Part shown: piece after piece, positions 2,997 to 31,006 of the stretch
Layout: every line of letters starts with the position of its first letter
Numbering within the stretch: position 1 is the stretch's first letter
NCBI GenBank assembly: GCA_965278945.1
Contig: OZ257128.1
Location: forward strand, 1,426,623-1,490,622
Length of the DNA: 64,000 nucleotides
Reading direction: 5' to 3'
Source of the DNA: Actinomycetes bacterium
GTDB taxonomy: Bacteria > Actinomycetota > Actinomycetes > S36-B12
Translations under genes and position numbers: made by a program
The notes under the pieces: model-generated
The model's input: the letters and a program-made list of their open reading frames with translations, nothing else
The model's database searches: none
Told to the model about the DNA's origin: nothing

Positions 2997-3001
2997 TTGG
3001 C

Positions 3002-8134: not shown

Positions 8135-8143
8135 CACGGGACA

Positions 8144-13103: not shown

Positions 13104-13981
13104 GACGCCGGCGACCATGGGGAGAGCAGGAAGTCCGAGAGCGCCGCGTTGAAGATATCGGGCTCCTCCCACTGCGGCCAGTGTCCGCAGCGTTCCATGA
13201 GGACGAACTCGGCGTTTGGGACCAACGCGGCTGCGCGCCGCGCGGTCTCTGCCGTCGTCGTCGGATTGTCGCTCGTCCACAGGAACAGCGTTGGCTGGAC
13301 GATTCCGGAGAGGACGTCCGGCGTGAGTGGAGCCGCCTGCTGGTTGCTCAAGCGGTTGTTTGCATCGGCAAGGACGCGGGCAGCCTCGTCCTGCTGGTAC
13401 ATCACCCAGCGGATGTCGACCAACTCATCAGTGAGACTGGCGGCGGGGTCAAAGAAGAGCCACTCCATTCTCCGACGGACCGCGTCACGGCTCGGATTGG
13501 CAACGAACTCACCAGTCAGTCGCCGTAACTCGCTGAGCCCGTCCTTCATGTGCTGACGGGACGCGTCGTCCTCCTCAATGCCGAGCCGCGCACCGCATAC
13601 TGATACGAGCTTGGTGACGCGGTCGGGATGGCGAATCGCGGTCCACATCGCAATCCACCCGCCGAGGGACTCGCCAACCAGATAGGCCTGCGTGATTCCG
13701 GCCGCGTCGAGCAGCGCCAGCAGGTGCTCCACGTAGTCGTCCAAGCCGGGAGCGGTCGAAGGGGCGTCGGTGAGACCGAATCCCAGATAGTCGACTGCGA
13801 GTACACGGAAGTCCTTGCTCAACGGTATGACGTTGCGGGCGAACGCCTCGGCGTGCCCGCCCTGACCATGAAGCAGGACAACGGCAGGACCCGAGCCCGC
13901 CTCGATGCACCGCGTACGAATGCCGCCCGCGTCGTAGTAGCGGACCTCCGCTCCCAGCAACTCGACCCAGACGGTGTTCAC
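13100..13981 (-). CDS. meta-cleavage-product (C-C bond) hydrolase, alpha/beta fold, copy 1
   Basis: It has the oxyanion motif LLHGQGG, the nucleophile elbow GESLGG, and a C-terminal CGHWPQWEEPDIFNAALSDFL typical of BphD/MhpC-type hydrolases. The GTG start overlaps the upstream stop (GTGA). Confidence 0.85.
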   Translation of the reverse strand: MNTVWVELLGAEVRYYDAGGIRTRCIEAGSGPAVVLLHGQGGHAEAFARNVIPLSKDFRVLAVDYLGFGLTDAPSTAPGLDDYVEHLLALLDAAGITQAYLVGESLGGWIAMWTAIRHPDRVTKLVSVCGARLGIEEDDASRQHMKDGLSELRRLTGEFVANPSRDAVRRRMEWLFFDPAASLTDELVDIRWVMYQQDEAARVLADANNRLSNQQAAPLTPDVLSGIVQPTLFLWTSDNPTTTAETARRAAALVPNAEFVLMERCGHWPQWEEPDIFNAALSDFLLSPWSPAS

Positions 13982-15318
13982 GACTGCTCCTTGTGATGGT
14001 TTCCGGTCGCCGCCAGAACAGGCTCAGCGTCGTCTCCGGTCGGATGAAATGCGAGGCTGGACCGCGCCGGTACCTGTCGCTCCATAAAGATCTCGCTGCC
14101 TGTGCTCGCGGACTTGAGAATCGCTAGGCACACCTCCAGCGTCGCCATCCCCCAACGCCCGTCATGGAACAACGGGCGATCCTGGACAACGGCTTCGTAC
14201 ATCTCGGTGAGCTCAGCCGTGCGACCAGTCGCGCCCTTCTCGATCGTGATCTCCTCGGCACCCCGTGAGCCGTAGACCATCAGCCCGTGCGGGCTCTGCC
14301 GGACCACGCCTTGCTCGCAGCTGACGAGCGTGTAACCGAAGTACGGCTGATACAGGCTCGGTCCCCCCGTGTAGCCGAACAGCGCCATCGTCTCGCCGTC
14401 GGCGTCCGGTGTTCCGTACCGGCCCTGCTCCTTCTGGGCATCAAGCCGCGCGTCGAGGTCATCGTCATCACGAGAGCTCGCCTTGAGGTCAAGGAAGTTC
14501 TGCCGCATACGAATCGACCTACCGACTGCTCGCTGCTGACCACCTTCTCCAATATGGCCGAACAGTTCACCGCTGTCGAAGAATCCCCTAGCATCGAAAG
14601 CGAGCAACGCGGTCGCGCCATCACGAAACGTCAGGAAGCAGTTGTAGCCAGCCTCGACTCCTCGCAGGTCATCCCAGATGACAGAGGCGCGGACGCTGTG
14701 CACTAGGCCTCCCGCAACCTGACGGACGATGTCGACCTGATGCGGACCCTGATTGAGGACCGGCCCGTGGCTCGAAACCAGTTCCCGGTTTGGCCACGGC
14801 AGGACGTTGAAGTCGTTGTAGTTGAACGTCATGACCGAGACGAGAGCGCCCAGCTCTCCGGACTCGACGAGCTCCTGCAGCCGCAGGATCGGCGGATCAA
14901 AACTGTGCGTATGCCCAGCCATGAGCTTGATGCCGCAGGCATCCGCCACCTCGATCATCTTCTCTGCGTCAGCCAACGTGGAGGCCATTGGCTTTTCGAC
15001 GATCACATGCTTGCCTGCCTGCGCGGCCAGCGTCACGTGCTCAAGTCGCTGTTCCGGGAGTGTGGCGATGTACAGCACATCGACGTCCGGATCTGCACAC
15101 AGCTCAGCGACACTCGTGTAGGCGCGGCCGCCAAATTCCTCCTGGAACATCGTCAAAGCCCCGCGGCGCTCCTCGCGCTCAGCAGCGGCGACCACGCGAT
15201 ACGGCAACTGCGCGAGCTCGGTCTTGCGACGAAGGATGAGGTTCACCGCCTGCCCGAGACCGACAAAGCCGAGACCAAGTTGGCGCTGCGGAACCTCGTT
15301 CATCTCTGTTGTCCTCAC
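13978..15318 (-). CDS. Gfo/Idh/MocA-family NAD(P)-dependent oxidoreductase, copy 1
   Basis: It has an N-terminal Rossmann region (LGFVGLGQA ... VLYIATLPEQRLEHVTLAAQAGKHVIVEKPMA). It is 446 aa long. Dihydrodiol and semialdehyde dehydrogenases such as LigC and phthalate dihydrodiol dehydrogenase belong to this family, but the substrate is not assignable. Confidence 0.85.
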   Translation of the reverse strand: MRTTEMNEVPQRQLGLGFVGLGQAVNLILRRKTELAQLPYRVVAAAEREERRGALTMFQEEFGGRAYTSVAELCADPDVDVLYIATLPEQRLEHVTLAAQAGKHVIVEKPMASTLADAEKMIEVADACGIKLMAGHTHSFDPPILRLQELVESGELGALVSVMTFNYNDFNVLPWPNRELVSSHGPVLNQGPHQVDIVRQVAGGLVHSVRASVIWDDLRGVEAGYNCFLTFRDGATALLAFDARGFFDSGELFGHIGEGGQQRAVGRSIRMRQNFLDLKASSRDDDDLDARLDAQKEQGRYGTPDADGETMALFGYTGGPSLYQPYFGYTLVSCEQGVVRQSPHGLMVYGSRGAEEITIEKGATGRTAELTEMYEAVVQDRPLFHDGRWGMATLEVCLAILKSASTGSEIFMERQVPARSSLAFHPTGDDAEPVLAATGNHHKEQS

Positions 15319-15475
15319 GTGGGGGTGACGGCTTTGCGCACGGGTGAGGCCATCAACTCGCCCCAGTAGCGGTAAAACTCACGTTGGTTCTCCTCGCTGA
15401 GCCCGTCGATGACAGTGCCAGGCCAGTTGGGGCCCTGCTCCATCAGCACCTCCCTGCCTGCGCCGAACTGACACA
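15315..15475 (-). pseudogene. 3' remnant of a Rieske oxygenase alpha-subunit gene (left behind by the duplication)
   Basis: The last 39 codons (GPNWPGTVIDGLSEENQREFYRYWGELMASPVRKAVTPT) are identical to the end of the intact gene at 19050..20414. A 135-bp in-frame deletion follows. After that come about 40 bp of degraded homology with a 2-bp indel, and then homology is lost. Confidence 0.7.
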
Positions 15476-16722: not shown

Positions 16723-16838
16723 CTTGGGGCCGACGCCAATCGTGGACGCCGGTACGTGATCAAGTGTGGATCGACGGCTGCCTGGCGCGTGATCATTAGT
16801 GCAGCATGCGATGAGGCGAACGCGGCGACGACCGTCAT
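16723..16838 (-). pseudogene. 5' remnant of LigB-type dioxygenase A (duplicate copy, 109-bp deletion, truncated)
   Basis: It encodes MTVVAAFASSHAALMITRQAAVDP and then shifts frame. Compared with copy 1, the 109 bp between two ATCGACGG octamers are missing. Homology ends at 16723. Confidence 0.7.
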
Positions 16839-17716
16839 GACGCCGGCGACCATGGGGAGAGCAGGAAGTCCGAGAGCGCCGCGTTGAAGATATCGGGCTC
16901 CTCCCACTGCGGCCAGTGTCCGCAGCGTTCCATGAGGACGAACTCGGCGTTCGGGACCAACGCGGCTGCGCGCCGCGCGGTCTCTGCCGTCGTCGTCGGA
17001 TTGTCGCTCGTCCACAGGAACAGCGTTGGCTGGACGATTCCGGAGAGGACGTCCGGCGTGAGTGGAGCCGCCTGCTGGTTGCTCAAGCGGTTGTTTGCAT
17101 CGGCAAGGACGCGGGCAGCCTCGTCCTGCTGGTACATCACCCAGCGGATGTCGACCAACTCATCAGTGAGACTGGCGGCGGGGTCAAAGAAGAGCCACTC
17201 CATTCTCCGACGGACCGCGTCACGGCTCGGATTGGCAACGAACTCACCAGTCAGTCGCCGTAACTCGCTGAGCCCGTCCTTCATGTGCTGACGGGACGCG
17301 TCGTCCTCCTCAATGCCGAGCCGCGCACCGCATACTGATACGAGCTTGGTGACGCGGTCGGGATGGCGAATCGCGGTCCACATCGCAATCCACCCGCCGA
17401 GGGACTCGCCAACCAGATAGGCCTGCGTGATTCCGGCCGCGTCGAGCAGCGCCAGCAGGTGCTCCACGTAGTCGTCCAAGCCGGGAGCGGTCGAAGGGGC
17501 GTCGGTGAGACCGAATCCCAGATAGTCGACTGCGAGTACACGGAAGTCCTTGCTCAACGGTATGACGTTGCGGGCGAACGCCTCGGCGTGCCCGCCCTGA
17601 CCATGAAGCAGGACAACGGCAGGACCCGAGCCCGCCTCGATGCACCGCGTACGAATGCCGCCCGCGTCGTAGTAGCGGACCTCCGCTCCCAGCAACTCGA
17701 CCCAGACGGTGTTCAC
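16835..17716 (-). CDS. meta-cleavage-product hydrolase, copy 2 (protein identical to copy 1)
   Basis: The 293-aa translation is identical to that of 13100..13981. There is one synonymous difference (T at 13217 versus C at 16952). Confidence 0.85.
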   Translation of the reverse strand: MNTVWVELLGAEVRYYDAGGIRTRCIEAGSGPAVVLLHGQGGHAEAFARNVIPLSKDFRVLAVDYLGFGLTDAPSTAPGLDDYVEHLLALLDAAGITQAYLVGESLGGWIAMWTAIRHPDRVTKLVSVCGARLGIEEDDASRQHMKDGLSELRRLTGEFVANPSRDAVRRRMEWLFFDPAASLTDELVDIRWVMYQQDEAARVLADANNRLSNQQAAPLTPDVLSGIVQPTLFLWTSDNPTTTAETARRAAALVPNAEFVLMERCGHWPQWEEPDIFNAALSDFLLSPWSPAS

Positions 17717-19053
17717 GACTGCTCCTTGTGATGGTTTCCGGTCGCCGCCAGAACAGGCTCAGCGTCGTCTCCGGTCGGATGAAATGCGAGGCTGGACCGC
17801 GCCGGTACCTGTCGCTCCATAAAGATCTCGCTGCCTGTGCTCGCGGACTTGAGAATCGCTAGGCACACCTCCAGCGTCGCCATCCCCCAACGCCCGTCAT
17901 GGAACAACGGGCGATCCTGGACAACGGCTTCGTACATCTCGGTGAGCTCAGCCGTGCGACCAGTCGCGCCCTTCTCGATCGTGATCTCCTCGGCACCCCG
18001 TGAGCCGTAGACCATCAGCCCGTGCGGGCTCTGCCGGACCACGCCTTGCTCGCAGCTGACGAGCGTGTAACCGAAGTACGGCTGATACAGGCTCGGTCCC
18101 CCCGTGTAGCCGAACAGCGCCATCGTCTCGCCGTCGGCGTCCGGTGTTCCGTACCGGCCCTGCTCCTTCTGGGCATCAAGCCGCGCGTCGAGGTCATCGT
18201 CATCACGAGAGCTCGCCTTGAGGTCAAGGAAGTTCTGCCGCATACGAATCGACCTACCGACTGCTCGCTGCTGACCACCTTCTCCAATATGGCCGAACAG
18301 TTCACCGCTGTCGAAGAATCCCCTAGCATCGAAAGCGAGCAACGCGGTCGCGCCATCACGAAACGTCAGGAAGCAGTTGTAGCCAGCCTCGACTCCTCGC
18401 AGGTCATCCCAGATGACAGAGGCGCGGACGCTGTGCACTAGGCCTCCCGCAACCTGACGGACGATGTCGACCTGATGCGGACCCTGATTGAGGACCGGCC
18501 CGTGGCTCGAAACCAGTTCCCGGTTTGGCCACGGCCTGGCGTTGAAGTCGTTGTAGTTGAACGTCATGACCGAGACGAGAGCGCCCAGCTCTCCGGACTC
18601 GACGAGCTCCTGCAGCCGCAGGATCGGCGGATCAAAACTGTGCGTATGCCCAGCCATGAGCTTGATGCCGCAGGCATCCGCCACCTCGATCATCTTCTCT
18701 GCGTCAGCCAACGTGGAGGCCATTGGCTTTTCGACGATCACATGCTTGCCTGCCTGCGCGGCCAGCGTCACGTGCTCAAGTCGCTGTTCCGGGAGTGTGG
18801 CGATGTACAGCACATCGACGTCCGGATCTGCACACAGCTCAGCGACACTCGTGTAGGCGCGGCCGCCAAATTCCTCCTGGAACATCGTCAAAGCCCCGCG
18901 GCGCTCCTCGCGCTCAGCAGCGGCGACCACGCGATACGGCAACTGCGCGAGCTCGGTCTTGCGACGAAGGATGAGGTTCACCGCCTGCCCGAGACCGACA
19001 AAGCCGAGACCAAGTTGGCGCTGCGGAACCTCGTTCATCTCTGTTGTCCTCAC
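17713..19053 (-). CDS. Gfo/Idh/MocA-family oxidoreductase, copy 2
   Basis: It is identical to copy 1 except NDFNVLPW versus NDFNARPW, caused by three substitutions within 4 nt. The GTG start at 19053 overlaps the alpha-subunit stop (GTGA). An ATG at 19038 preceded by GAGGA is an alternative start. Confidence 0.85.
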   Translation of the reverse strand: MRTTEMNEVPQRQLGLGFVGLGQAVNLILRRKTELAQLPYRVVAAAEREERRGALTMFQEEFGGRAYTSVAELCADPDVDVLYIATLPEQRLEHVTLAAQAGKHVIVEKPMASTLADAEKMIEVADACGIKLMAGHTHSFDPPILRLQELVESGELGALVSVMTFNYNDFNARPWPNRELVSSHGPVLNQGPHQVDIVRQVAGGLVHSVRASVIWDDLRGVEAGYNCFLTFRDGATALLAFDARGFFDSGELFGHIGEGGQQRAVGRSIRMRQNFLDLKASSRDDDDLDARLDAQKEQGRYGTPDADGETMALFGYTGGPSLYQPYFGYTLVSCEQGVVRQSPHGLMVYGSRGAEEITIEKGATGRTAELTEMYEAVVQDRPLFHDGRWGMATLEVCLAILKSASTGSEIFMERQVPARSSLAFHPTGDDAEPVLAATGNHHKEQS

Positions 19054-20414
19054 GTGGGGGTGACGGCTTTGCGCACGGGTGAGGCCATCAACTCGCCCCA
19101 GTAGCGGTAAAACTCACGTTGGTTCTCCTCGCTGAGCCCGTCGATGACAGTGCCAGGCCAGTTGGGGCCTCCCTCGATTCGAGGTTGGTCGAGTCGAGAT
19201 CCATAGTTAAAAGGCCAATGCTTGCCTTCAGTGCTTCGCAGGTTCTGCTGAAGACGCTCAAAGTTCTCGTGGTCATCAGGTGCGAACACGCCCGCTGCTG
19301 ACTGCTGCTCCATCAGCACCTCACACTGCCTACGCCGAACTGACGCGGGAGCATCGCGGTTCACAGCGCACCACTGCCACACCTCGGTCTCGTTAGGCCC
19401 ACGTGGCATCCACATGATTAAGCCCACGCCGTCGAAAGCAGTACCCAGACCGACAATGGAGAAGTTAGGAAAGATGTTGCCGACGTGGAAGCCATACGGC
19501 ACCGGGTCAACGCCCTGCTCAGCCATTTGGCGCGAACGTGTCTCGTGGCGCTTGCGCACCCATTCGACGGCCTCTGGCCCCAACAGTTCCGCCTGCGCCA
19601 GGTCATGCTCGTAGTAGGAGTCACCAACCCGGATCTCAAGGAGACCGTGGGGCGCTCCGTGACCGTGGTTGCAGGCGACCGCAAAGCTCGTGCCCGCTGC
19701 CCTGACGTCACGACCCGGAAGAACTCCCAAACGTGGATCAATCTCGGCAGCCCGGACAGCCAGCACAGATGCGTGAGTGACCGTCACATGAGTCTGGTCG
19801 CCAGCGAAGTTCTCGGCCAGGAGTTTCCAGTTTGCTGGCATGCGGTAGCGCTGCAAGCCTGGCAGTACCTCAAGTCCACCGATGGCGTCGTCTAGCATCA
19901 TCTGCTCGAGATACCACGCGGCCTCGCCGAGGTACTCGGCTAGCCCCGGACCAACCTCGCTCCACGTTGCGAAAATCAGCCCGTGAAACTCCTCCACGCG
20001 AGGCGCACGAACCAGGCCCCACTTTGACTTGTCGAAATCCTCTCCATAGGTGATGTCCTGGAACGGCACAGCCTTTAGCGTGCCGTCGCCCGTGTAGGAC
20101 CACCCGTGATAACTGCACGTGAACGATCGGCCATTGCCGTGGTCGAACAGGCACACACGATTGCCCCTGTGGCGGCACTTATTCAGCAGCACGTTGATCT
20201 GCTCACCTGAACCACGGGTCAAAATGACCGGGTCTTCGCCCATGTACGTCGACACGTAGTCGCCACGGTGCGGAATCATGGACGTGTGGCCGACGAACAG
20301 CCAAGCCTGGCCGAAGACCCTCTCCAACTCGGCCTCGTAAGTTTCGTCTGAGAAGACGTCCTTGCTCAGCAGCCCCGCGTCGGAAGGATTGTGGTGTTCC
20401 ATTCTTGTATTCAT
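19050..20414 (-). CDS. Rieske non-heme iron oxygenase, large (alpha) subunit, paralogue 1 (intact Rieske motif; no adjacent beta gene)
   Basis: It has the Rieske motif CRHRGNRVCLFDHGNGRSFTCSYHGW and the mononuclear-iron motif ENFAGDQTHVTVTH plus APDDHENFE. The ATG at 20414 follows GGAGGC. The ORF-track start at 20471 is less likely. Confidence 0.85.
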   Translation of the reverse strand: MNTRMEHHNPSDAGLLSKDVFSDETYEAELERVFGQAWLFVGHTSMIPHRGDYVSTYMGEDPVILTRGSGEQINVLLNKCRHRGNRVCLFDHGNGRSFTCSYHGWSYTGDGTLKAVPFQDITYGEDFDKSKWGLVRAPRVEEFHGLIFATWSEVGPGLAEYLGEAAWYLEQMMLDDAIGGLEVLPGLQRYRMPANWKLLAENFAGDQTHVTVTHASVLAVRAAEIDPRLGVLPGRDVRAAGTSFAVACNHGHGAPHGLLEIRVGDSYYEHDLAQAELLGPEAVEWVRKRHETRSRQMAEQGVDPVPYGFHVGNIFPNFSIVGLGTAFDGVGLIMWMPRGPNETEVWQWCAVNRDAPASVRRRQCEVLMEQQSAAGVFAPDDHENFERLQQNLRSTEGKHWPFNYGSRLDQPRIEGGPNWPGTVIDGLSEENQREFYRYWGELMASPVRKAVTPT

Positions 20415-20507
20415 ACTGCCTCCGTCCAATAAATCTCCGAGTCGTGACTGACGTTCGCGAACACTGGCCATGGCGGCCGTCCCCGTGAGGGACGGCCGCC
20501 ACCAGCA

Positions 20508-21785
20508 CTACTGACCGATGATCTCGTTCAGGATTTCCGTACCGGGAGCCATCGCCGACTTCACGTAGTCCTCGGTGTTCTGATCGAGATACTCGACGCC
20601 AGGCTGAGGAATGATCTCGGCCGGCACGTTCGGAGTGATCGCAACGTCAGCGCGGGTCGTCGGCTGGTCGAACGACAGCTGCATCGCTGCGGCGCCGCGT
20701 GGGCTCGCCAGCCAGTTCGCGAACACTGCTGCTGCTGCCGGGTGCGGCGACTTATCGAACAACCGCAGGATCCCAAAGCCGCTCGTGAGCACGCCGGGAG
20801 CGTCCGTTGGGAAGACAGGAACCAGCGGGAAACCCTCGGCCCGCAACTGCTGGGTCTGCTTCACATCGAGTCCGAGTCCCACCGGGTACGTACCACGGGC
20901 AACCCAGTCAGCGAGTTGCCGCTGATCGGTTGAGAATGCGACTTCCTGAGTCCCATAGAACTGCTCGGCGAACTCACGGCCCTTGTCGATCGCCATGAAG
21001 ACCGCAGCCGGGCTTCCCGGGCCTGGCCGCCGCGGATCGAACTGCGCAATCTTGCCTGTGAACTCCGGCTTGAGCAGATCGTCCCATGTCTGTATCGAGG
21101 CGGGATCCACAATGTCCGCGTTAACGGTCGGGTACGCGGTGACGTAAAGCAGCACGCGAAGGAGGTACTCAGCGCTGTTGTCCTGCCACTGCAGCGCGCC
21201 GCCCTGCCAACCAGCCGGATCCGTAACGCTCGGCAGCAGCAACTCGGGCTTCAGGGGGCGAAGCAGACCTGCAGGCAGATCGTCAAGCACGCCCGGGTAT
21301 CCGGAGAGGAAGACGTCCAGCGACATCTGACCGGCGGCCGCCTCCTGACGGAGCTTCCCGGTGATCTCGGCCGGCACCGCGTTGGGGAGGTAGTCCACCT
21401 TGATTCCAGTATCTGCCTCGAACTGGCTGCTCAGCATGTCGCGAACCGCGGGGTTCGGGCTAGACGCGATCGCGACGCTGCCTTCCGCCTGACCGGCAGC
21501 CAGGAGAGCGTCCCATTCCGCACCGCCACCATCGGCCCATGTCGCGTACTGAGCGAGGACTTCCTGCTGCTGCTCGGGTGAGAGCTGGACCGCAAGGCCC
21601 TCGCCCTCCGGTGGCGCGCTGCTGCCAGCTGCAGCGCTAGCGGCAGAACTGGGTGCCATGCTGGCCGCCGAAGATGACTCAGAGGAGGAGTTGCTACCGC
21701 ACGCGGCCAGGAGGACCACGGAGGAAATCACCGCCAGTGCACGCGCAGCGGCCCATGGGGACCGTCGGTACGACAGAGCGTTCAT
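20508..21785 (-). CDS. ABC transporter substrate-binding lipoprotein (family-1 solute-binding, Fe3+/polyamine-like fold class)
   Basis: It has a signal peptide with a lipobox (VVLLAAC GS) followed by a Ser/Ala-rich linker. The ATG follows GGAAAGG. Size and composition fit a type II periplasmic binding protein. The ligand is unknown. Confidence 0.8.
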   Translation of the reverse strand: MNALSYRRSPWAAARALAVISSVVLLAACGSNSSSESSSAASMAPSSAASAAAGSSAPPEGEGLAVQLSPEQQQEVLAQYATWADGGGAEWDALLAAGQAEGSVAIASSPNPAVRDMLSSQFEADTGIKVDYLPNAVPAEITGKLRQEAAAGQMSLDVFLSGYPGVLDDLPAGLLRPLKPELLLPSVTDPAGWQGGALQWQDNSAEYLLRVLLYVTAYPTVNADIVDPASIQTWDDLLKPEFTGKIAQFDPRRPGPGSPAAVFMAIDKGREFAEQFYGTQEVAFSTDQRQLADWVARGTYPVGLGLDVKQTQQLRAEGFPLVPVFPTDAPGVLTSGFGILRLFDKSPHPAAAAVFANWLASPRGAAAMQLSFDQPTTRADVAITPNVPAEIIPQPGVEYLDQNTEDYVKSAMAPGTEILNEIIGQ

Positions 21786-21977: not shown

Positions 21978-22544
21978 TCAGAAGAAGATCGAGACGGTGC
22001 GAGGTAGGACGGGATGGCCAAGCTCGATGTGCCGGCGGAGTAAGCGGAACCCTTGTGGAGTGCGCCTGATCTGGTCCCACCGCGAGCCCACGAATGTGCT
22101 TTCGTTGCGCTCATGGCGGACCTGGTGGACGAGGAACGTCGATCGCACTCGATACAGATCCTCATCGTCCGGGTCTGGAGTGGCTGTCACATTGCTAACG
22201 AGATGATTCGTGATCGACTCCGGCAGTTCTGCGTGCGCCATCCCCGTATCGAGGCGACGAACCCGCATGTTCAGGGAGTTGTAGTCCTCGTCGAAAACCC
22301 AGAAGCGCAACGGTGCTTCGGCTTCATCGGTGCGCACGCCCCATCGAGCGGCGTCCCGCGCCGCACGGTCCTGAGGAGTTGCTGGCGGAGGGAGGACGCC
22401 CGTGCTCGGCATGACATACCGGATGTTGGGATCTAGGATCCCGAGCCATGCGTCAAAGAGATGGTCATCGAGCAACTGCGCCTCTTCGAATAGGAAGGCT
22501 TGAAGATCCGCAGTCACCTCCGCGTCAATCGTCCCGAGATTCAT
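21978..22544 (-). CDS. Rieske oxygenase small (beta) subunit (SnoaL/NTF2-like)
   Basis: Typical beta-subunit N-terminus (LQAFLFEEAQLLDDHLFDAWLGILDPNIRYVMP) and C-terminus (IRRTPQGFRLLRRHIEL). The ATG overlaps the stop of alpha paralogue 2 (ATGA). Confidence 0.85.
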   Translation of the reverse strand: MNLGTIDAEVTADLQAFLFEEAQLLDDHLFDAWLGILDPNIRYVMPSTGVLPPPATPQDRAARDAARWGVRTDEAEAPLRFWVFDEDYNSLNMRVRRLDTGMAHAELPESITNHLVSNVTATPDPDDEDLYRVRSTFLVHQVRHERNESTFVGSRWDQIRRTPQGFRLLRRHIELGHPVLPRTVSIFF

Positions 22545-23875
22545 ACGTGCCCTCCGTCCTGGCCGCTGTCGGCCATCACCTCGCCCCAGTAGCGGTAAAA
22601 CTCACGTTGAATCATCTCTGTGAAGCGCGGCAGGACGAGGCCCGGCCACGCGGGGTTCTGCCATTCGAGAGGACGAACGTCGACGCCCTCGCCCTGTAGT
22701 CCCATCTCGTAGTTGAACGGCACAAACCTCGCCTGACGGGTCCGTGTGTTCTCCGACAATCGCTCGAAGTTCTCGTGGTCATCAGGAGCGAAGATGCCGG
22801 CGGCAGCCTGCTGATGCGTTATCGAGAAGCACATCTGTTCTTTCAGCACTCTCGGCGCGCCCGCATCTACGAACGAATACTGAGAGACGACCGTTTCGTA
22901 CGGCCCCCTCGGGTGCCATACGAGCAGCCCCACTGCTTCCATGGCAGTGCCGTTTCCGACGATCGACAGCGTCGGGAACACGTTCCCGACATGAAAGCTG
23001 TAGGGCTTGATCGATAGTTCGGGTAGGCGCTCATCAATCGACGCACGTCTCGTACGGACCCAGTCTCCTGCGGCCTGTGACAGCGTTTGCGCGCGGGCGA
23101 GGTCGTGCTCGTAGAACTCCTCGCCGACCCGTACCTCGAGGAAGCCGTGCGGCACTCCGTTGCGGTATCCGGTTGCTACAGAGAGGTTTGCGCCGATGCC
23201 CTTGGCGGGCGAGTTGATCAGACGTGGCTCCACACCCTGTGCGCGCAGACTGAGGACCGACGCGTGCGTGATGGCAACGTGGTAGTCGTCGCCGGCGAAG
23301 TTCTCCGCAAGCAACTTCCAATTTCCCGGCATGGCGTAGCGATGGACATCGGGAACGAGCTCGAGCCCACCGATGTCCTCACGCAACAGGTAGTTGTCGA
23401 GGTACCAAGCGGCATCTCCCAAGTGGTCCAGCAACGTCATGGTGGGGGCGCGCAGGGTTGCGAAGACCAGGCCTCCGAAAACCTCCACGCCGCCTGTCTG
23501 CACAAGGCACGGGGGCAGATCCGCGTTGTCGATGCCACCAAGAAGTCGTCCGGCTGTGTCGTAGCTGCGGCGGTGAGAGGGGCAATCCAGATGAATGGCG
23601 ACGCCCGCGTCGCAACTGACAAATCGACTGCAGGCCGTGGAGCATGCGTTGACGAAAACGCGGAGAATGTCATCTGCTCCGCGCAGCAGGATCACCGGGG
23701 TTTCTCCCATCCAAGTGGTTACATAGTCAAGGGTTCGCGGCACCTGCTGCACGTGACCGACGAAGAGCCAAGATGTGCGGAAGACCGCCTCCATCTCTGA
23801 TTCGTAGACATCGGGGTCGTACACCGAGCAGTCGACAAGCCCGGTGTCGAGCGAAAACCGCTCTGCAACTCGCAT
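22541..23875 (-). CDS. Rieske-oxygenase alpha-subunit paralogue 2 with a degenerate Rieske motif
   Basis: It aligns with paralogue 1 along its whole length. The catalytic motif ENFAGDDYHVAITH and APDDHENFE are conserved. The Rieske segment reads CSTACSRFVSCDAGVAIHLDCPSHRR, with Thr in place of the first His and RR in place of GW. The ATG follows AGGAGGA. Confidence 0.8.
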   Translation of the reverse strand: MRVAERFSLDTGLVDCSVYDPDVYESEMEAVFRTSWLFVGHVQQVPRTLDYVTTWMGETPVILLRGADDILRVFVNACSTACSRFVSCDAGVAIHLDCPSHRRSYDTAGRLLGGIDNADLPPCLVQTGGVEVFGGLVFATLRAPTMTLLDHLGDAAWYLDNYLLREDIGGLELVPDVHRYAMPGNWKLLAENFAGDDYHVAITHASVLSLRAQGVEPRLINSPAKGIGANLSVATGYRNGVPHGFLEVRVGEEFYEHDLARAQTLSQAAGDWVRTRRASIDERLPELSIKPYSFHVGNVFPTLSIVGNGTAMEAVGLLVWHPRGPYETVVSQYSFVDAGAPRVLKEQMCFSITHQQAAAGIFAPDDHENFERLSENTRTRQARFVPFNYEMGLQGEGVDVRPLEWQNPAWPGLVLPRFTEMIQREFYRYWGEVMADSGQDGGHV

Positions 23876-23927: not shown

Positions 23928-25694
23928 CTAGCCTCCGACGAGGCTGTACTTGCGCATCATTCGAAGCGCAAGAAAGGCGACTGCAGATGCGAGCGCTGCC
24001 ATGATGAGTCCGATCACTGCGGCGGACTCATAGTCACCAGCTACTGCGTACTCAAAGAGCAGCACCGACATCGTGCGCGTACCCGGAGTAGCTAGCATCA
24101 CTGTCGCAGCGATGTCTCTCATCGACATCATGAATGTGAAGACAAAGACGGTGGCAACCATGGGGATCACAAGCGGAAGCAGAATTCGTCGAAATACGAC
24201 AGTCGGGCCAGCGCCCGACATGACTGCAGACTCCTCAAGTTCGGGCGAGACCTGCGCCATCGCGCTGCGGAGCATCGCCACGCCCAGAGGGAGTTCCTTG
24301 ATAACAAGCACCACGACCAGCGGCACCAACGTTCCATAGATCAACGCGCCGACGCCCGTGCCGAGGATCAAGCTGCTCCAAGCAAAGCCCAAGAGCAGAC
24401 CCGGCACCGCCCAGGGCAGCCAACACAGCAGGGCCAGCGTGCCTGTGTAAGGCAGTTTCCTGCGCGCAATCACCCAGGCCAGGACTGCATAAAGCATGAT
24501 CCCGAGGATCGACGTGATGGATGCTACAACCAAGGAGTTACGTAACGAGTCGAGCAAGGTGGGATCGGTCAGCGTGGCCTGCCAATGCTCGGTGGTCCAC
24601 GAGCCTCGCGAGAAGAAGCCGAAGCGCCAGCGAACCGAACCGAGCAAGACGATGCTGAGTGGTAGGTAAAGACCCACCGCGAGGGCCGCGAGGATGACGC
24701 CCATCACCACCCGATCAGCCCAGCGTGTGCTTCTGACGCTTGTACGCAGACTCCGCCCGCCAACGGTCGCGACGTTGCTCCAACGCTTGCTCAGGACCTG
24801 ATTGACACCTGCTAACAGCAGGAGAGTGATGAGCATGACTACGCCCAGGGCCATCGCTTCGGAGAACAGAGGCGGGTCGGAACCTATCTGGTCGTAGATG
24901 CGAGTGGCATAGACATCGATGCCAGCCGGGGTCCCAAGGATTCGCTCAACTTCGAACACCTCGAGGCACCGCAGGAAGCCGACTACAGTCGCGGCAAGTA
25001 CCGCAAGCTTGATGAGTGGTAGGGAGATGTGCCTCAGGGTCCGGACGCGTCCTGCGCCTGACATGACCGCAGCTTCTTCCAGGGTGACGTCCATCTGCCG
25101 GAAGGCCGGAGACAGGAAGATGATCATGATCGGGACAGTGGTCAGCGTGAGGTGCACCCAAAGGAGCCCGGAAATCGAGTAGATGTTCAATGTCGGAGCG
25201 CCGGGGATGTTAGCGAGCCACTCGTTGATCAGGCCAGTGTTCGGATCCGCAAGGACGATCCAACCCAGGACCACCGGCACAGTGGGCAAGAAGAACGCAA
25301 GCCAGAGCGAGTACTCCACGAAGCGGGCGATCTTCATCTGCGTACGCGTCAAGAACCATGCGATGACCCCACCGATGATGACGGCGACGGGAACACGCAT
25401 GGCGAGGAGGAATGTGTATCCGAATGATTCGAGGGTCCGCTGTGATTGCGTCGCGTCTTGCCAGGCGTCGAGGCCCGGTTCGAACGGTTGACCAAGTCCC
25501 GCGATATTGAAGGACTGCATGACCATGAACGCGATCGGCGCGATAACGAGGAATGCGACGGCGCCGAGGAGAGCCAGTCCGCCTGCCTTTCGCAGCCTTC
25601 CGTGCAACTTCGCTCGACGGCGTGCGAGAGTCTCTCCAGACTCTCCCGATGTCGTCGCCGGCGGAGCCGGAGGAGGAGCGGTCGTCGTCACCAA
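23928..25694 (-). CDS. ABC transporter permease, fused two-domain type (about 12 TM)
   Basis: At 588 aa it contains two tandem binding-protein-dependent permease modules, each with an EAA-like loop (LEEAAVMSGAGRVRTLRHISLPL and LEESAVMSGAGPTVVFRRILLPL). The start is TTG or GTG after GGAGAGG. Confidence 0.85.
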   Translation of the reverse strand: MVTTTAPPPAPPATTSGESGETLARRRAKLHGRLRKAGGLALLGAVAFLVIAPIAFMVMQSFNIAGLGQPFEPGLDAWQDATQSQRTLESFGYTFLLAMRVPVAVIIGGVIAWFLTRTQMKIARFVEYSLWLAFFLPTVPVVLGWIVLADPNTGLINEWLANIPGAPTLNIYSISGLLWVHLTLTTVPIMIIFLSPAFRQMDVTLEEAAVMSGAGRVRTLRHISLPLIKLAVLAATVVGFLRCLEVFEVERILGTPAGIDVYATRIYDQIGSDPPLFSEAMALGVVMLITLLLLAGVNQVLSKRWSNVATVGGRSLRTSVRSTRWADRVVMGVILAALAVGLYLPLSIVLLGSVRWRFGFFSRGSWTTEHWQATLTDPTLLDSLRNSLVVASITSILGIMLYAVLAWVIARRKLPYTGTLALLCWLPWAVPGLLLGFAWSSLILGTGVGALIYGTLVPLVVVLVIKELPLGVAMLRSAMAQVSPELEESAVMSGAGPTVVFRRILLPLVIPMVATVFVFTFMMSMRDIAATVMLATPGTRTMSVLLFEYAVAGDYESAAVIGLIMAALASAVAFLALRMMRKYSLVGG

Positions 25695-25887: not shown

Positions 25888-27069
25888 CTAACGCGTTCCG
25901 GTGGCAAACTGGCCGGCGTGCGAGGCCAGTTCGTCTGTCTCTAGTGCGGCGAGTGCCTGATCTTCCTTGGGGAAGATCAGCACCTGGTCAGGTACGAAGT
26001 CGACCTTGACTCGGGCTCCCCGCGTGATCCCGTCAAGCGAATGCGACCGAGCTCTTAGAAGGTTTCCTTCGACGTCGACCTGATACTCCATCGCATCACC
26101 GAGAAACTCAGCAACGCGGACGGTTCCGGTCCACGCGGAGTGGTCGGATTCGTCAGTTAGCCTCAATCGGACATGCTGGGGGCGCACCGAAACGGTCACC
26201 AAGGCATCAGCCTTGAAGGAGCCGCTCGCGACTCCTTCAAGGCTGCCCGATGTGGTTGCGACTCCATGGGACTGGCCGACGCCTCGTCCGGTAATAACAC
26301 CCGGCAAGAAATTGCTGCCGCCGATGAAGCTGGCGACAAAGGCGGACGCCGGCCGCTCGTAGATGTCCCGCGGAGGTCCGACCTGCTCGATCACGCCCTT
26401 GTTCATGACGACGATCACATCGGACATCGCCAAAGCCTCGACCTGGTCGTGAGTGACGTAAAGAGTGGTGATGCCAAGGTCCTTCTGAAGCCTCGACAAC
26501 TCGATTCGCATGCTGTCCCGCAATCGAGCGTCGAGGTTCGACAGCGGCTCGTCGAGCAGTAGCAACGGCGGTTCGAGCACCAATGCGCGCGCGAGCGCCA
26601 GGCGCTGCTGCTGGCCTCCCGAGAGTGCTGTTGCAGGACGGTCGGCGAACTGCTCCATCTGCGCGATGGCGAGTACAGCGTCGACCCGCCGGCGTAGTTC
26701 CGTCGGTGACGGTCGCTGCCCTCGAGGCATGATCTTCAGCGGGAATGCTGCGTTTTCGTACACAGTCATGTGTGGCCAGATGCCGTACGACTGGAACATC
26801 ATTCCCAGTCCCCGCTTGTTGGGCGCAATGTTGATCTTCGTCGTCGAGCAGAAGACTGCGCGGCCGCCGACGGTTATCCTGCCGGACTCAGGCAGCTCCA
26901 AGCCAGCGATAGACCTGAGCGTCGTGGTCTTGCCGCACCCGGACGGGCCGAGCAGCGTCACGAACTGGCCAGCCTCGGCCTTGAGCGAGACACCGTTCAC
27001 GGCGAACTGCGTGTCTCCGGCGGCCTGTAGGGCGGGATAGGCCTTCTTCAGAGACTCGACTTGGAGCAC
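25888..27069 (-). CDS. ABC transporter ATP-binding protein (PotA/FbpC/MalK-like, with a C-terminal regulatory/TOBE-like domain)
   Basis: It has Walker A GPSGCGKTT, the signature LSGGQQQRLALARAL, Walker B LLLLDEPLSNLD and the H-loop VTHD. The GTG start follows GGAGG. Confidence 0.9.
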   Translation of the reverse strand: MLQVESLKKAYPALQAAGDTQFAVNGVSLKAEAGQFVTLLGPSGCGKTTTLRSIAGLELPESGRITVGGRAVFCSTTKINIAPNKRGLGMMFQSYGIWPHMTVYENAAFPLKIMPRGQRPSPTELRRRVDAVLAIAQMEQFADRPATALSGGQQQRLALARALVLEPPLLLLDEPLSNLDARLRDSMRIELSRLQKDLGITTLYVTHDQVEALAMSDVIVVMNKGVIEQVGPPRDIYERPASAFVASFIGGSNFLPGVITGRGVGQSHGVATTSGSLEGVASGSFKADALVTVSVRPQHVRLRLTDESDHSAWTGTVRVAEFLGDAMEYQVDVEGNLLRARSHSLDGITRGARVKVDFVPDQVLIFPKEDQALAALETDELASHAGQFATGTR

Positions 27070-27211: not shown

Positions 27212-27535
27212 TCATCCCTGGGTCGGCGGAACGTCGACGACCAATCCGTCGAGTTCCTCGGTCACCACAATCTGGCATGATAGGCGGCTGGTCGCCCGCC
27301 GCTCCTCCACGCCCAGATCGAGCAGATCGTCCTCGGAGTGGTCGGGCTGCCCAACGGACGCAAAGTGATCGTCCCTTACCCATACGTGACAGGTAGCGCA
27401 GGACTTGTTGCCTCCGCACTCTGCAACTATGCCGCGCACGCCGTTCTTCGCGGCCGCGGCCATCACGGACTCCCCGATGGTTGCGTCGATGACACTCTCC
27501 TTGCCATCGGCCTCGACGAAGATCACCTTCGGCAT
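27212..27535 (-). CDS. [2Fe-2S] ferredoxin, adrenodoxin/putidaredoxin type
   Basis: The 107-aa product has the cysteine pattern C-x5-C-x2-C ... C (AECGGNKSCATCHV ... SRLSCQI). Confidence 0.85.
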   Translation of the reverse strand: MPKVIFVEADGKESVIDATIGESVMAAAAKNGVRGIVAECGGNKSCATCHVWVRDDHFASVGQPDHSEDDLLDLGVEERRATSRLSCQIVVTEELDGLVVDVPPTQG

Positions 27536-27674: not shown

Positions 27675-28553
27675 TCATGAGTGCGAATCCACAGCGCTGA
27701 GAACATCCTCCGCCGTGAGTAGCGCTGGATTGCGAGCGACCTCGAGTCGCTGTGCGAGCGCAGCGAGAACGATCTTTCGAACACGCCGACCGTCCCAACC
27801 GGTGCACCGCGATGAGATCTCACCATGCAGGAACTTGTCATCGGCGAGCGGTCGTAGCTCCGGCCACAGAGCAGCCAGTTCGCGGAACGACGCACGGACG
27901 ATGGCGACGATTGTTGCGGTGTCGGGAAGCGCTAGATGCAGAACGAGATCCGCACGCGAGAGAAATGCTTCATCGATTGCGGAGGGGAAGTTGGTCGTCG
28001 CCACGAACAGCACCCCCGGATGGTCCGTCGCGACGGAGTCTAGGCCCGCGAGAAGGGCGTCGGTTGCGCGGTGGACATCGACCGGGTTGGTCTCGAAGGA
28101 CGCTGTGGATCGCCGGACGGCAAGACTCTCGACCTCGTCGATCAGGACCACGGTGTGCGGTCGGCGCGCAGCCAGTTCCGGGATGGTGTCGGTCATCAGG
28201 CGCGTGACCGCTCGCTGGCTGGCCCCGAGCATCTCACTCGGAAATGCATGGGGATCGATCTCGACGTAGGTCGTTGCGCCGAGTGGTGCGAGCTCACGAG
28301 CAGCCGCCTGAGCGAGGCCTCGCGCCAGTGTCGTCTTGCCGGTCCCCGCAGGCCCAGCAAGGACGACCAGCCCGTGGGGCAAGCCGGGCAGGGTCGCCAG
28401 GCGACGACCGTGCCTCATCGTGAGAATCGCTGTCGACAGCAATCGCTCCTTGGTTCCGGGGGGAACGAAGATGTGATCCCACGGGCCGTCGTGATGGCCG
28501 GCCGGCAGCGCGTGCACTGACAGCACGCCATCAGGCATGATGTTGGACGCCAC
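27675..28553 (-). CDS. AAA+ ATPase, Pch2/TRIP13-like (Cap6-like) clade
   Basis: It has Walker A GPAGTGKT and Walker B [10 protein letters not shown]. The blocks [66 protein letters not shown] and [12 protein letters not shown] resemble TRIP13/Pch2 as I remember it. The AAA call is secure. The clade call rests on memory, not on a search. The start (GTG 28553 or ATG 28538) lies 3-18 nt after the bicupin stop. Confidence 0.75.
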   Translation of the reverse strand: [292 protein letters not shown]

Positions 28554-28556
28554 GCG

Positions 28557-29645
28557 TCAGGGCCAGGTAGGACGCTGAAGTGCTGGCCAGGTGATCGTCG
28601 ACAGATCACCGGCCTGCGCATCGCGGACCGCATCCGGGGGCTCTTCGAAGAGAACCATCGGATCCATGAGCACGCGCATCGTCTCCAGCAGGCTGTCGAA
28701 CATATGGATCCGGACGACCTTCGCGGTCCGTTCGGGATCGTCGTTGAAGTGCTGATGCCACAGGAAGTGGTCCACGACGATGATGTCGCCCTTCTCCCAT
28801 GTGTGATCCTCACCGCTGTCGGGCTCTGTGCCGAGGAAGGTGTGCCCCCTTCCCTCGACGACGTATAGCCACGCCTCGCCCGGATGCCGGTGCATCGACT
28901 GGCCGCGGCCCGGTGCGATCTCGAACATCGCCATGGTGATGCCGGACGCCTGAAAGCCGATCGCCTTGTCGAGTAGGAAAGTGGTGCGCGTTCCCCGCGG
29001 TGTCGGTAGGAGCTCAAGCTCGTCCCAGCTGGTGTGAAGGCGTCCTGACCGGCGCGCATCCTGGTCTCGGGCGAGCCGGCGAACACGACGCGCGTACGCG
29101 TCGTCACCTTCGATCGGGGCTGCATATGGCGGTCGTGGGGCGAGCGTGTCGACGGGTGCGTGCCCTCCATCCTCCTGGAAGGCCATCCCCATCGTCTCGA
29201 GCAGCGGCTCACTGGAGAAGCTCAGGAAACGACAGGTCTGGTCGGCCTCATTGCCATGTCGGTGCCAAGCCCATGCCGGCAGGTGCAGCGAGTCGCCCGG
29301 TCCCCACTCGATTCGCACGCCGTCGACCTCGGTCCATCCCCATCCGGCGACGACGAAGATCATGGCGTCCCATGAGTGACGGTGAATCGTCGACGTGACG
29401 CCGGCGTCGATCTCGTGGACGAGCGCGTCCATCGACCTCGTTGGGCGATCGCCGTCAGCGCCGACATATACGCCGCGCCTCATGCCGCGCGCGGTGTCCT
29501 GCATCTCGACGTCCGCGAGCCGCACGACTGTGTTGCGAAAGTTCCGCCACTCCTCAAGGAAGTCAGCTCGCCGCTTCTTCTGCACGTGATAGTGGGTTAG
29601 CCCGGTCTTCGTCGTGGTCATGGTCGCCCATTCGTCTATTGGCAT
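28557..29645 (-). CDS. bicupin dioxygenase, gentisate/1-hydroxy-2-naphthoate/salicylate 1,2-dioxygenase-like
   Basis: It has two cupin modules. The first reads STIHRHSWDAMIFVVAGWGWTEVDG..GDSLHLPAWAWHRHGN. The second reads QSMHRHPGEAWLYVVEGRGHTF..GDIIVVDHFLWHQHFN. The start is uncertain (ATG at 29678, 29645 or 29621). Confidence 0.75.
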   Translation of the reverse strand: MPIDEWATMTTTKTGLTHYHVQKKRRADFLEEWRNFRNTVVRLADVEMQDTARGMRRGVYVGADGDRPTRSMDALVHEIDAGVTSTIHRHSWDAMIFVVAGWGWTEVDGVRIEWGPGDSLHLPAWAWHRHGNEADQTCRFLSFSSEPLLETMGMAFQEDGGHAPVDTLAPRPPYAAPIEGDDAYARRVRRLARDQDARRSGRLHTSWDELELLPTPRGTRTTFLLDKAIGFQASGITMAMFEIAPGRGQSMHRHPGEAWLYVVEGRGHTFLGTEPDSGEDHTWEKGDIIVVDHFLWHQHFNDDPERTAKVVRIHMFDSLLETMRVLMDPMVLFEEPPDAVRDAQAGDLSTITWPALQRPTWP

Positions 29646-29758
29646 AATGGTCAGTCCACTAAGAATACACACACCCATTTCGCCGGCGCGGCCGACAGAC
29701 GAGGTACTGATCGACTGTGTGCAGGCAAATGGTAAAATAATCAGTCCAAGGAGGCGAA

Positions 29759-31006
29759 GTGGTGAAGAACGGACAGGGCACCCTTATTGTCGGAGCGAGC
29801 CAGGCCGGGTTGCACCTTGCGACGACCCTTCGGGACCTCGGAGACGAGGAGGCGATCACGCTCGTCGGCGCGGAGGCGCACGCGCCGTACCAGCGACCCC
29901 CTTTGTCCAAGGAGTTTCTCACGGGTTCTGCGACGCGCGATGCGCTCGCCTTTCGAACATCGGCGTTCTACTCGGACGCCCGAATCGGACTCATTCTCGG
30001 AGAGCGCGTGACGGCCGTGCAGTGCGAGGCCGATGGCGGAGTGGCGCTGACATCGGCGGGTCGTGAGATGCAGTTCGACCGCCTCGCCCTCACGGTGGGA
30101 GCCCGCCCGCGACGGCTTGTGGTGGCCGGCTGCGACCTTGACGGGATCATCTACCTGCGCGAACTGCAGGATGCCGAGGAGCTTCGGGCACGACTCGCGA
30201 CCGCGACACGCGTCGTGGTTGTAGGCGGTGGCTTCATCGGACTTGAGGCAGCGGCGGCGGCTCGGGCGTTGGGGAAGTCGGTAACCGTCGTGGAGGCAGC
30301 AGACCGCCTCGTAGCGCGGGCAGTAGCCCCTGTGGTCTCGGACTTCTACCTCCAGGCTCACACCCGTCGCGGCGTCGACTTGCTCCTGTCGACCGGGGTT
30401 GTCGGGTTTGGCGGTGACAGCGGCGCAGTGTGCACCGTGCAACTGTCTGACGGCCGGGAGATCCCCTCTGACCTCGTCATCGTCGGCATCGGCGTGCTAC
30501 CGCGAACGGAACTGGCCGAGCAGCTCGGTCTTGAGGTCGACGGTGGCATAGTCGTGGACGCGCACGCGCGCACAAGTCGGCCTTTCGTAGTCTCTGCCGG
30601 CGACTGCACCGTCCTTCCGGACCCCTTGACCGGAGTCGGCCGCCTACGGCTGGAGTCGGTACAAAGTGCCGTCGCACAGGCGGGCATCGCGGCTTCAACG
30701 CTGCTTGGACGCGACACCGCCACGCGGATCGTTCCCTGGTTCTGGTCCACGCAAGGAGACCTGCATCTCCAGATCGCCGGCCTGTCCGCCGGCCACGACC
30801 ATCACGTCGTCCGGGGTGATCCCGATAGCGAGCACTTCTCTGTTCTGTACTACAAGTACGGAAGGCTAATTGCCGTGGACGCAATCAACAATCCGGTCGA
30901 CTACATGGTCGTTCGCAAGGCCCTGGGTTCCGGGTCCAACCTGCCCCTTGATGACGTGGCCGACGCTTCGACTCCGCTGAAGTCGCTAGTGGTCACCCCG
31001 TCCTAG
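29759..31006 (+). CDS. ferredoxin--NAD(P)+ reductase (FAD-dependent pyridine nucleotide-disulfide oxidoreductase family)
   Basis: It has the dinucleotide-binding motifs LIVGASQAG and VVVVGGGFIGLEAA, plus the YQRPPLSKEFL block typical of putidaredoxin-reductase and BphA4-type reductases. AGGAGG precedes the GTG start. Confidence 0.85.
   Translation: MVKNGQGTLIVGASQAGLHLATTLRDLGDEEAITLVGAEAHAPYQRPPLSKEFLTGSATRDALAFRTSAFYSDARIGLILGERVTAVQCEADGGVALTSAGREMQFDRLALTVGARPRRLVVAGCDLDGIIYLRELQDAEELRARLATATRVVVVGGGFIGLEAAAAARALGKSVTVVEAADRLVARAVAPVVSDFYLQAHTRRGVDLLLSTGVVGFGGDSGAVCTVQLSDGREIPSDLVIVGIGVLPRTELAEQLGLEVDGGIVVDAHARTSRPFVVSAGDCTVLPDPLTGVGRLRLESVQSAVAQAGIAASTLLGRDTATRIVPWFWSTQGDLHLQIAGLSAGHDHHVVRGDPDSEHFSVLYYKYGRLIAVDAINNPVDYMVVRKALGSGSNLPLDDVADASTPLKSLVVTPS

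Follow-up and report, generated by a model that had tools for sequence, protein, structure and literature searches.

The window analysed here is a 64,000-nucleotide stretch of DNA from an Actinomycetes bacterium (GTDB lineage Bacteria; Actinomycetota; Actinomycetes; S36-B12), taken from contig OZ257128.1 of assembly GCA_965278945.1 (positions 1,426,623 to 1,490,622 of the forward strand). It contains a catabolic gene cluster that encodes two paralogous large (alpha) subunits of the Rieske ring-hydroxylating dioxygenase type, denoted alpha-1 and alpha-2, and one small (beta) subunit. The subject of this work is alpha-2, in which the binding site of the Rieske [2Fe-2S] cluster is degenerate and the catalytic iron site is intact. 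The subunits and their sites are located as follows, in window positions.

22541-23875, minus strand: alpha-2, 444 amino acids, a Rieske ring-hydroxylating dioxygenase large (alpha) subunit whose Rieske site is degenerate (open reading frame, Pfam)
23573-23644, minus strand: degenerate cluster-binding segment of alpha-2, C78-S-T80 ... C98-P-S-H101, with Thr in the place of the first His ligand (alignments)
23636-23638, minus strand: codon of T80 of alpha-2
23567-23572, minus strand: R102-R103 of alpha-2, following the second His where canonical proteins have G-W; every member of the alpha-2 clade has R102
23507-23509, minus strand: C123 of alpha-2, invariant across its clade, Gly in 89 of 104 canonical relatives
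23264-23305, minus strand: ENFAGDDYHVAITH of alpha-2, with the bridging Asp D196 and the iron ligands H199 and H204, intact
22763-22789, minus strand: APDDHENFE, carboxylate ligand region of alpha-2, intact
21978-22544, minus strand: beta (small) subunit, the only one of the gene cluster (PF00866, 115 bits)
19050-20471, minus strand: alpha-1, the canonical paralogue, without an adjacent beta; the 454-residue form found in databases results from a start at 20414
20106-20177, minus strand: canonical Rieske motif of alpha-1, 24 residues
19773-19814, minus strand: ENFAGDQTHVTVTH of alpha-1, with the bridging Asp and both iron-ligand His (H228 and H233), intact

Both domains of a dioxygenase alpha subunit are recognised in alpha-2 by Pfam, namely the Rieske-fold domain (PF00355, 28.6 bits with a cut-off of 20.3, as compared to 56.2 bits for alpha-1) and the catalytic domain (PF00848, 49.9 bits) with its 2-His-1-carboxylate ligands and bridging Asp. 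However, the segment from C78 to H101, CSTACSRFVSCDAGVAIHLDCPSH (the minus-strand translation of window positions 23573-23644), lacks the four-ligand pattern C-x-H ... C-x-x-H of the alpha3beta3 Rieske oxygenases. When alpha-2 was aligned with alpha-1 by BLASTP (46% identity), NACSTACSRFVSCDAGVAIHLDCPSHRRSY of alpha-2 was placed over the motif without any gap. The phmmer alignments with solved Rieske dioxygenases (E 8e-54) were likewise ungapped at this point, and T80 falls under the His of C-R-H in both biphenyl dioxygenase (1uli_A) and toluene dioxygenase (3en1_A). A preliminary description of this DNA had proposed that the first His ligand of alpha-2 is replaced by Thr, that C78, C98 and H101 are retained, and that the customary H-G-W has become H-R-R. 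These assignments were all borne out, and no His stands at the ligand position in the ungapped alignments.

The degenerate domain is nevertheless predicted to fold. In the AlphaFold2 (AF2) model of alpha-2, with a predicted template-modelling score (pTM) of 0.83, the Rieske domain (residues 21-110) has predicted local distance difference test (pLDDT) values of 90-98, and the best folds in the PDB by Foldseek were BphA1, TodC1 and HcaE (E about 1e-29, template-modelling scores, TM, of 0.74-0.78). The only internal regions of low confidence (pLDDT below 50) are residues 194-226 and 357-394, i.e. the iron-ligand segments, probably as a result of the shallow alignment of 19 sequences.

A homologue search over 5.8 billion proteins placed alpha-2, which is itself among the proteins of the collection, on a contig of 3.65 Mb, in a separate clade (P0001-P0008, 61-89% identity), below which identity falls sharply to about 46%. 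With all 10 members included the identities span 61-98%. The column of the first His ligand reads T, T, T, T, T, A, T, S, T and D in the 10 members and holds His in none of them, but C78, C98 and H101 are kept in all 10; the canonical pattern C-x-H...C-x-x-H is found in all 115 remaining homologues that the first search returned. The loss of the His is thus common to the orthologues, none of which has C-x-H, and simple decay of the copy in the window is excluded. The preliminary description had also considered an atypical [2Fe-2S] cluster with three Cys and one His as ligands, using C82, C88 or the His of an AIHLD motif (given there as His96, but actually H95). This could not be upheld, since C82 occurs in the window protein alone and C88 and H95 in 3 of the 10 members each. 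The three positions differ even in P0122, a protein 98% identical to alpha-2, and such poor conservation excludes them as general ligands.

The alpha-2 clade is rare, with 8 clusters among the 5.8 billion proteins, all of them from uncultured Actinomycetota. A genome scan gave one GTDB species representative with a close relative, the metagenome-assembled genome (MAG) MFD03066.bin.2.7 of an uncultured Actinomycetota bacterium. No representative of the clade was returned by a clade-profile search of a 1.84-billion representative library, where the best match was the canonical P0021 (480 bits); since clustering at 50% left the clade without a representative, this search was unable to enlarge it.

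To compare the two clades, reference columns were defined as those conserved in at least 90% of 104 canonical relatives, and mean identities were calculated for the same five genome pairs in both clades.

Cluster-binding loops (residues 76-104): 13 conserved columns, of which the alpha-1 clade keeps 13 and the alpha-2 clade 5; mean identity 0.90 in the alpha-1 clade and 0.48 in the alpha-2 clade
Whole Rieske domain: 32 conserved columns, of which the alpha-1 clade keeps 29 and the alpha-2 clade 17; mean identity 0.74 in the alpha-1 clade and 0.50 in the alpha-2 clade
Catalytic domain: 82 conserved columns, of which the alpha-1 clade keeps 73 and the alpha-2 clade 67; mean identity 0.77 in the alpha-1 clade and 0.78 in the alpha-2 clade

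The loop columns that survive in the alpha-2 clade are N76, C78, G91, C98 and H101. Among the eight that are lost are H80, R81, C86, F96, Y100 and W103, which comprise the ligand His as well as residues that surround the [2Fe-2S] cluster in canonical relatives. W55, T59, R102 and C123 have been gained as invariant residues, and C123 stands just past a deletion of 7-8 residues that is specific to the clade. Neither the invariant C123 nor the loss of eight of the 13 loop columns formed part of the preliminary description.

The divergence of the coding sequences follows the same division between domains. According to the Nei-Gojobori method, the Rieske domain of alpha-2 exceeds the catalytic domain in nonsynonymous divergence (dN) by a factor of about 3-8. 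The ratio of nonsynonymous to synonymous divergence (dN/dS) is 0.16-0.43 for the Rieske domain and 0.05-0.12 in most pairs for the catalytic domain (0.20 for L001 versus L007), these ratios being rough, with synonymous sites near saturation in most pairs, so that only relative dN and a dN/dS below 1 were used. The raised dN in combination with a low dN/dS means that the Rieske domain of alpha-2 is relaxed but still under selection. In the catalytic domain D196 (in AGDDYH), H199, H204 and the DDHENFE region are all invariant within the clade. The intact 2-His-1-carboxylate region previously noticed in the window protein, i.e. ENFAGDDYHVAITH and APDDHENFE, is consequently a property of the whole clade.

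The surroundings of the two alpha genes are of importance for the role of alpha-2, and the following genes are found next to them.

27212-27535, minus strand: [2Fe-2S] ferredoxin of the Fer2 type, likely electron carrier to the oxygenase (PF00111; conserved in L006)
25888-27069, minus strand: ATP-binding cassette (ABC) transporter ATPase
23928-25694, minus strand: ABC-transporter permease, upstream of alpha-2
20508-21785, minus strand: ABC-transporter solute-binding protein, between beta and alpha-1 (Pfam, synteny)
17713-19053, minus strand: GFO/IDH/MocA oxidoreductase directly after alpha-1, probable cis-dihydrodiol dehydrogenase (Pfam, synteny)
29759-31006, plus strand: ferredoxin reductase (Pyr_redox_2, Pyr_redox, Reductase_C) with no Rieske domain (Pfam)

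The operon on the minus strand is thus ordered ferredoxin, ABC ATPase, permease, alpha-2, beta, solute-binding protein and alpha-1, followed by the GFO/IDH/MocA dehydrogenase, a meta-cleavage hydrolase and a LigB-type extradiol dioxygenase. An AGGAGG ribosome-binding site precedes the ATG of alpha-2, and the ATG of beta overlaps the stop codon of alpha-2 (GTATGA). The same set of genes was observed in every related contig with context (L001, L002/L003, L004, L006, L007, L008 and L009; L005 is the same contig as L001, from a MAG of an uncultured Actinomycetota bacterium, and alpha-2 of L008 is cut by the contig end). In all eight loci with context, the window included, the only beta gene comes directly after alpha-2, and at every locus a canonical gene of the alpha-1 type without a beta of its own lies within a few kb, between the genes for the solute-binding protein and the GFO protein. 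Conversely, alpha-2 is also present on every contig of the alpha-1 clade with context. The alpha-1 clade, with 9 clusters of 69-100% identity before a fall to 54%, parallels the alpha-2 clade with its 8 clusters.

In a neighbour-joining analysis of the catalytic domain the alpha-1 and alpha-2 clades were exclusive sisters in 32 of 40 bootstraps. They have two derived residues in common, F200V and V362F, both next to iron ligands, which fits a common substrate for alpha-1 and alpha-2. The nearest outgroups, P0012 and P0011, are single canonical alpha subunits directly followed by beta, and P0011 is found in the same context of permease, solute-binding protein, GFO and LigB genes. Sister clades with outgroups of this kind indicate that the pair arose by duplication of a normal alpha gene, and to judge from these relationships it is the beta-coupled copy, alpha-2, that lost a Rieske ligand after the duplication.

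The reciprocal situation was encountered in L007, a Logan contig of 5.6 kb (SRR32481255) with a normal alpha-2 and a normal beta. On this contig the orthologue of alpha-1 (372 amino acids, L007 positions 2371-3489) has kept a perfect Rieske motif, but in-frame deletions have removed ENFAGDQTHVTVTH and thereby both catalytic His ligands, APDDHENFE has been changed to AAEDHARLE, and the C-terminus is truncated. The deleted catalytic motif was not restored in the other reading frames of this gene. Compared with alpha-1 of the window the identity is 0.90 in the Rieske loops and 0.53 in the catalytic domain. The sole Rieske motif of the contig is accordingly found in alpha-1 and its sole catalytic site in alpha-2, which is the split that a division of labour predicts. 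No further alpha-1 variants of this kind were found, and the L007 variant is a singleton among the 5.8 billion proteins.

On balance, we consider it an even chance that alpha-2 is a catalytic subunit without a normal [2Fe-2S] cluster, working together with alpha-1 and the single beta in one terminal oxygenase. The preliminary description had left three options, and this one, a cluster-less catalytic subunit fed by alpha-1, is favoured by the co-occurrence of the genes, the single beta, the sister origin and L007. Slightly less probable is the stricter version in which the enzyme is obligately mixed from alpha-1, alpha-2 and beta, with one paralogue providing the Rieske relay and the other the active site, or else an additional one. 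Taken together the observations suggest that the paralogues share the work inside one enzyme. The absence of the [2Fe-2S] cluster, the co-assembly of alpha-1 and alpha-2, their stoichiometry and the direction in which electrons flow we infer from sequence. Supply of a Rieske cluster in trans would be consistent with the co-occurrence of alpha-1 and with L007.

In such a mixed oxygenase electrons would be passed from the ferredoxin reductase (29759-31006) to the ferredoxin (27212-27535) and further to the Rieske cluster of alpha-1, from which they would reach the iron of alpha-2 (H199, H204 and the Asp in APDDHENFE) through Asp196, the bridging residue of that subunit. Alpha-2 would retain its degenerate Rieske domain as a folded interface module, and H101 may have been kept for contact with the bridging Asp of the neighbour, to judge from the structure of naphthalene dioxygenase. 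It is known that some 12 Å separate the Rieske cluster of one alpha from the iron of the next, as compared to about 45 Å for the iron of its own alpha, and that the ligand histidines of the Rieske and iron centres are linked between subunits through a conserved Asp (PMC12445004). As the cluster of a subunit never serves the active site of the same subunit, its loss would cost alpha-2 nothing, provided that the feeding neighbour is alpha-1.

Several points weigh against this interpretation. It builds on two deductions at the same time, that the cluster is absent and that the two alphas co-assemble. The fully conserved catalytic site of alpha-1 (73 of 82 columns) is kept in all genomes but one, and alpha-1 could be a complete enzyme on its own together with the shared beta. 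L007 is one contig of 5.6 kb, and its alpha-1 variant, a singleton, could be a decaying gene. Furthermore, two types of subunit cannot alternate in a three-membered ring, which would leave one interface or more unproductive, and C3 symmetry is found in every Rieske oxygenase solved so far (PMC12445004). Finally, three invariant ligands in the midst of diverged loops hint at residual metal binding.

The last point is the core of an unlikely alternative, in which alpha-2(3)beta(3) is self-sufficient and has a metal centre in the place of the former cluster, bound by C78, C98, H101 and a non-canonical fourth ligand. This ligand might be C123, water or a residue of the neighbouring subunit, and the centre either a [2Fe-2S] cluster of an unusual kind or a mononuclear site with Fe or Zn. 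The three surviving ligands, invariant in all 10 clade members, are all found within the five retained loop columns out of 13, for which the probability of chance retention is about 0.035; R102 is invariant as well, and C123 is a new invariant Cys restricted to the alpha-2 clade. On the other hand, the ligand column varies between T, A, S and D, and since it includes Ala the residue there is not itself a ligand. C82, C88 and H95 are unconserved, R81, F96, Y100 and W103 are gone from around the loops, and C123, which comes 22 residues after H101 where the strand that enters the basal sheet begins, should be far from the cluster tip, a position that we assume from the general Rieske fold. A residual metal site also leaves unexplained why alpha-1 is always without a beta of its own and why the pair constantly co-occurs. 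A new type of metal site formed by C78, C98 and H101 with C123 or with a ligand from a partner subunit is less likely than the mixed oxygenase.

The pseudo-enzyme that was the third option of the preliminary description has been weakened, albeit it is still to be reckoned with as a minor possibility of about the same weight as the residual metal site. According to this option alpha-2 is a non-catalytic partner, i.e. a scaffold, stabiliser, regulator or substrate binder without turnover, and alpha-1 does the chemistry. A dead cofactor site is indeed the classic mark of a pseudo-enzyme, both sites of alpha-1 are intact in 7 of 8 loci, and families of alpha-like proteins with both sites degenerate do exist (e.g. 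P0145 and P0210). However, the catalytic domain of alpha-2 is as conserved as that of alpha-1 (0.78 versus 0.77), no variation is seen in its bridging Asp, its two His ligands or its carboxylate region, and its dN/dS is 0.05-0.12 in most pairs. Moreover, alpha-1 of L007 has no catalytic ligands, and only alpha-2 could catalyse on that contig.

It is quite improbable that alpha-2(3)beta(3) is a separate enzyme with its iron reduced directly by ferredoxin or another donor, and alpha-1 an independent oxygenase that borrows beta. The gene cluster does encode a Fer2 ferredoxin and a reductase, and both alphas have complete catalytic sites. Nevertheless, to our knowledge no bypass of the Rieske cluster exists in this oxygenase family, the catalytic site lost from alpha-1 of L007 would be left unexplained, and a motif scan for further Rieske carriers near the gene cluster revealed neither an additional Rieske ferredoxin nor a Rieske-bearing reductase. 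Even NdmC, the one known catalytic subunit without a cluster, receives the Rieske cluster of a partner (PMC4408171).

As regards a sequencing or assembly error or a decaying pseudogene, for which the broken motif and the low Pfam Rieske score are the only arguments, this explanation has practically no probability left and is refuted by the conservation throughout the clade (the same state in 10 proteins from independent assemblies, in line with the earlier opinion that no single sequencing error is involved), by the strong purifying selection on the catalytic domain, by the intact reading frame, which has a strong ribosome-binding site and is translationally coupled to beta, and by the two other frames over positions 23500-23700, in which no C-x-H or other alternative motif restores the site.

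A profile search of the representative library also revealed other alpha-like proteins with broken Rieske motifs (P0145, P0341, P0210, P0236, P0182 and P0219). The motif is C-R-R...CPQH in P0145 and P0341, C-G-A in P0210 and C-P-S in P0236, and in some of these degenerate proteins the catalytic His motif is broken as well. P0145 and P0341 are identical over their N-terminal ~165 residues and then diverge, as if one were a chimera or recombinant, and the contig of 2.9 kb that gives the context of this C-R-R variant has no informative neighbours. Degenerate alpha paralogues seem to have arisen several times.

The partners expected for an alpha3beta3-type oxygenase, i.e. an adjacent PF00866 beta, a ferredoxin and a reductase, are all encoded in the window, and the gene cluster as a whole resembles a full set of genes for the import and meta-cleavage of an aromatic acid. 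In NCBIfam the closest matches were to HcaE/HcaF and MhpB-like families, in each case far short of the cut-off. Besides those of alpha-1 and alpha-2, the window has a single Rieske motif, the canonical CAH...CAYH of an unrelated LigXa-like, alpha-only Rieske oxygenase (37135-38421, minus strand). The window also has genes for a bicupin resembling gentisate dioxygenase (27675-28553) and a small AAA ATPase (28557-29678), both on the minus strand, and this pair is kept beside the alpha-1/alpha-2/beta gene cluster in L002, L004 and L006. An AAA ATPase is unusual in an aromatic catabolic operon.

The 3' end of alpha-1 is part of a direct duplication of 2.4 kb (13033-15434 and 16768-19169, offset 3735, with 4 mismatches), which copies an alpha/beta hydrolase gene, the GFO/IDH/MocA gene and ~120 nt from the end of alpha-1, and in this way a 3' fragment of alpha-1 is also present at about 15315-15434. 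The repeat is a segmental duplication of recent date or else an artefact of the assembly. Three transposase/integrase (rve) genes flank the catabolic region (7208-8134, 8104-8988 and 38575-39825), and in L001 an ISL3 transposase gene is inserted between two halves of the permease gene. The catabolic gene cluster may be mobile or rearranging.

Rieske oxygenases are of major importance in pollutant degradation and natural-product chemistry and are targets for enzyme engineering. The alpha-2 clade is a rare yet conserved variant form within this well-known enzyme family. If the mixed alpha-1/alpha-2/beta oxygenase is real, it would be a new architecture in which one alpha has given up its cluster and, in one lineage, the other its iron site, i.e. 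a division of labour reached through duplication and complementary loss. It would also break the rule of C3-symmetric homo-oligomers in which every alpha holds both metal centres. Nature would then have performed an experiment that separates electron relay from catalysis, otherwise separable only by mutagenesis, and the system would be useful for studies of inter-subunit electron transfer, half-site reactivity and subunit assembly. For annotation there is a more immediate warning, as the name "Rieske 2Fe-2S domain-containing protein" is no guarantee of a cluster.

In the full-text literature we found no description of a degenerate-Rieske alpha paired with a canonical alpha, although coverage is thin for subscription journals and the absence of such reports is therefore unproven. 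With the canonical alpha3beta3 enzymes (BphA1A2, 1ULI; TodC1, 3EN1; HcaEF, 8K0A) alpha-2 shares the two-domain fold, the beta partner, the 2-His-1-carboxylate site and the bridging Asp, and ferredoxin and reductase partners and a meta-cleavage context are present in the window too. Unlike them, alpha-2 has lost one of the four cluster ligands along with eight of the 13 conserved loop residues, and the gene cluster has two alpha paralogues for one beta. Retention of the Rieske fold as a structural module after loss of cluster ligands is known elsewhere, e.g. in NirD, the small subunit of nitrite reductase, but domains of the NirD type are found outside oxygenase alpha subunits, and alpha-2 still keeps three of the four ligands.

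The known alpha3beta3 enzymes are homo-oligomeric in alpha and C3-symmetric, and the architectures listed in a 2025 review are C3-symmetric alpha3, alpha3beta3, alpha3alpha'3 and alpha3alpha3, each alpha having both centres (PMC12445004). The only known hetero-alpha assembly is the alpha3alpha'3 heterohexamer of NdmA and NdmB, which combines two alpha paralogues in one complex, as proposed here (PMC12445004). In that case, however, both paralogues have intact clusters and form separate, stacked homotrimers, without a beta and without a division of labour.

The nearest functional precedent for the role proposed for alpha-2 is the N7-demethylase NdmCDE of Pseudomonas putida CBB5, in which the catalytic subunit NdmC, a cluster-less subunit with non-heme iron, is fed in trans by the Rieske cluster of another polypeptide (PMC4408171). 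NdmC has lost its whole Rieske domain, whereas a degenerate domain is present in alpha-2 and is predicted to be folded. In NdmCDE the Rieske domain is fused to the reductase NdmD and the glutathione S-transferase (GST)-like NdmE is required, and the enzyme belongs to an alpha-only family. In contrast, the reductase of the window has no Rieske domain, and the proposed donor of electrons to alpha-2 is its own paralogue, alpha-1.

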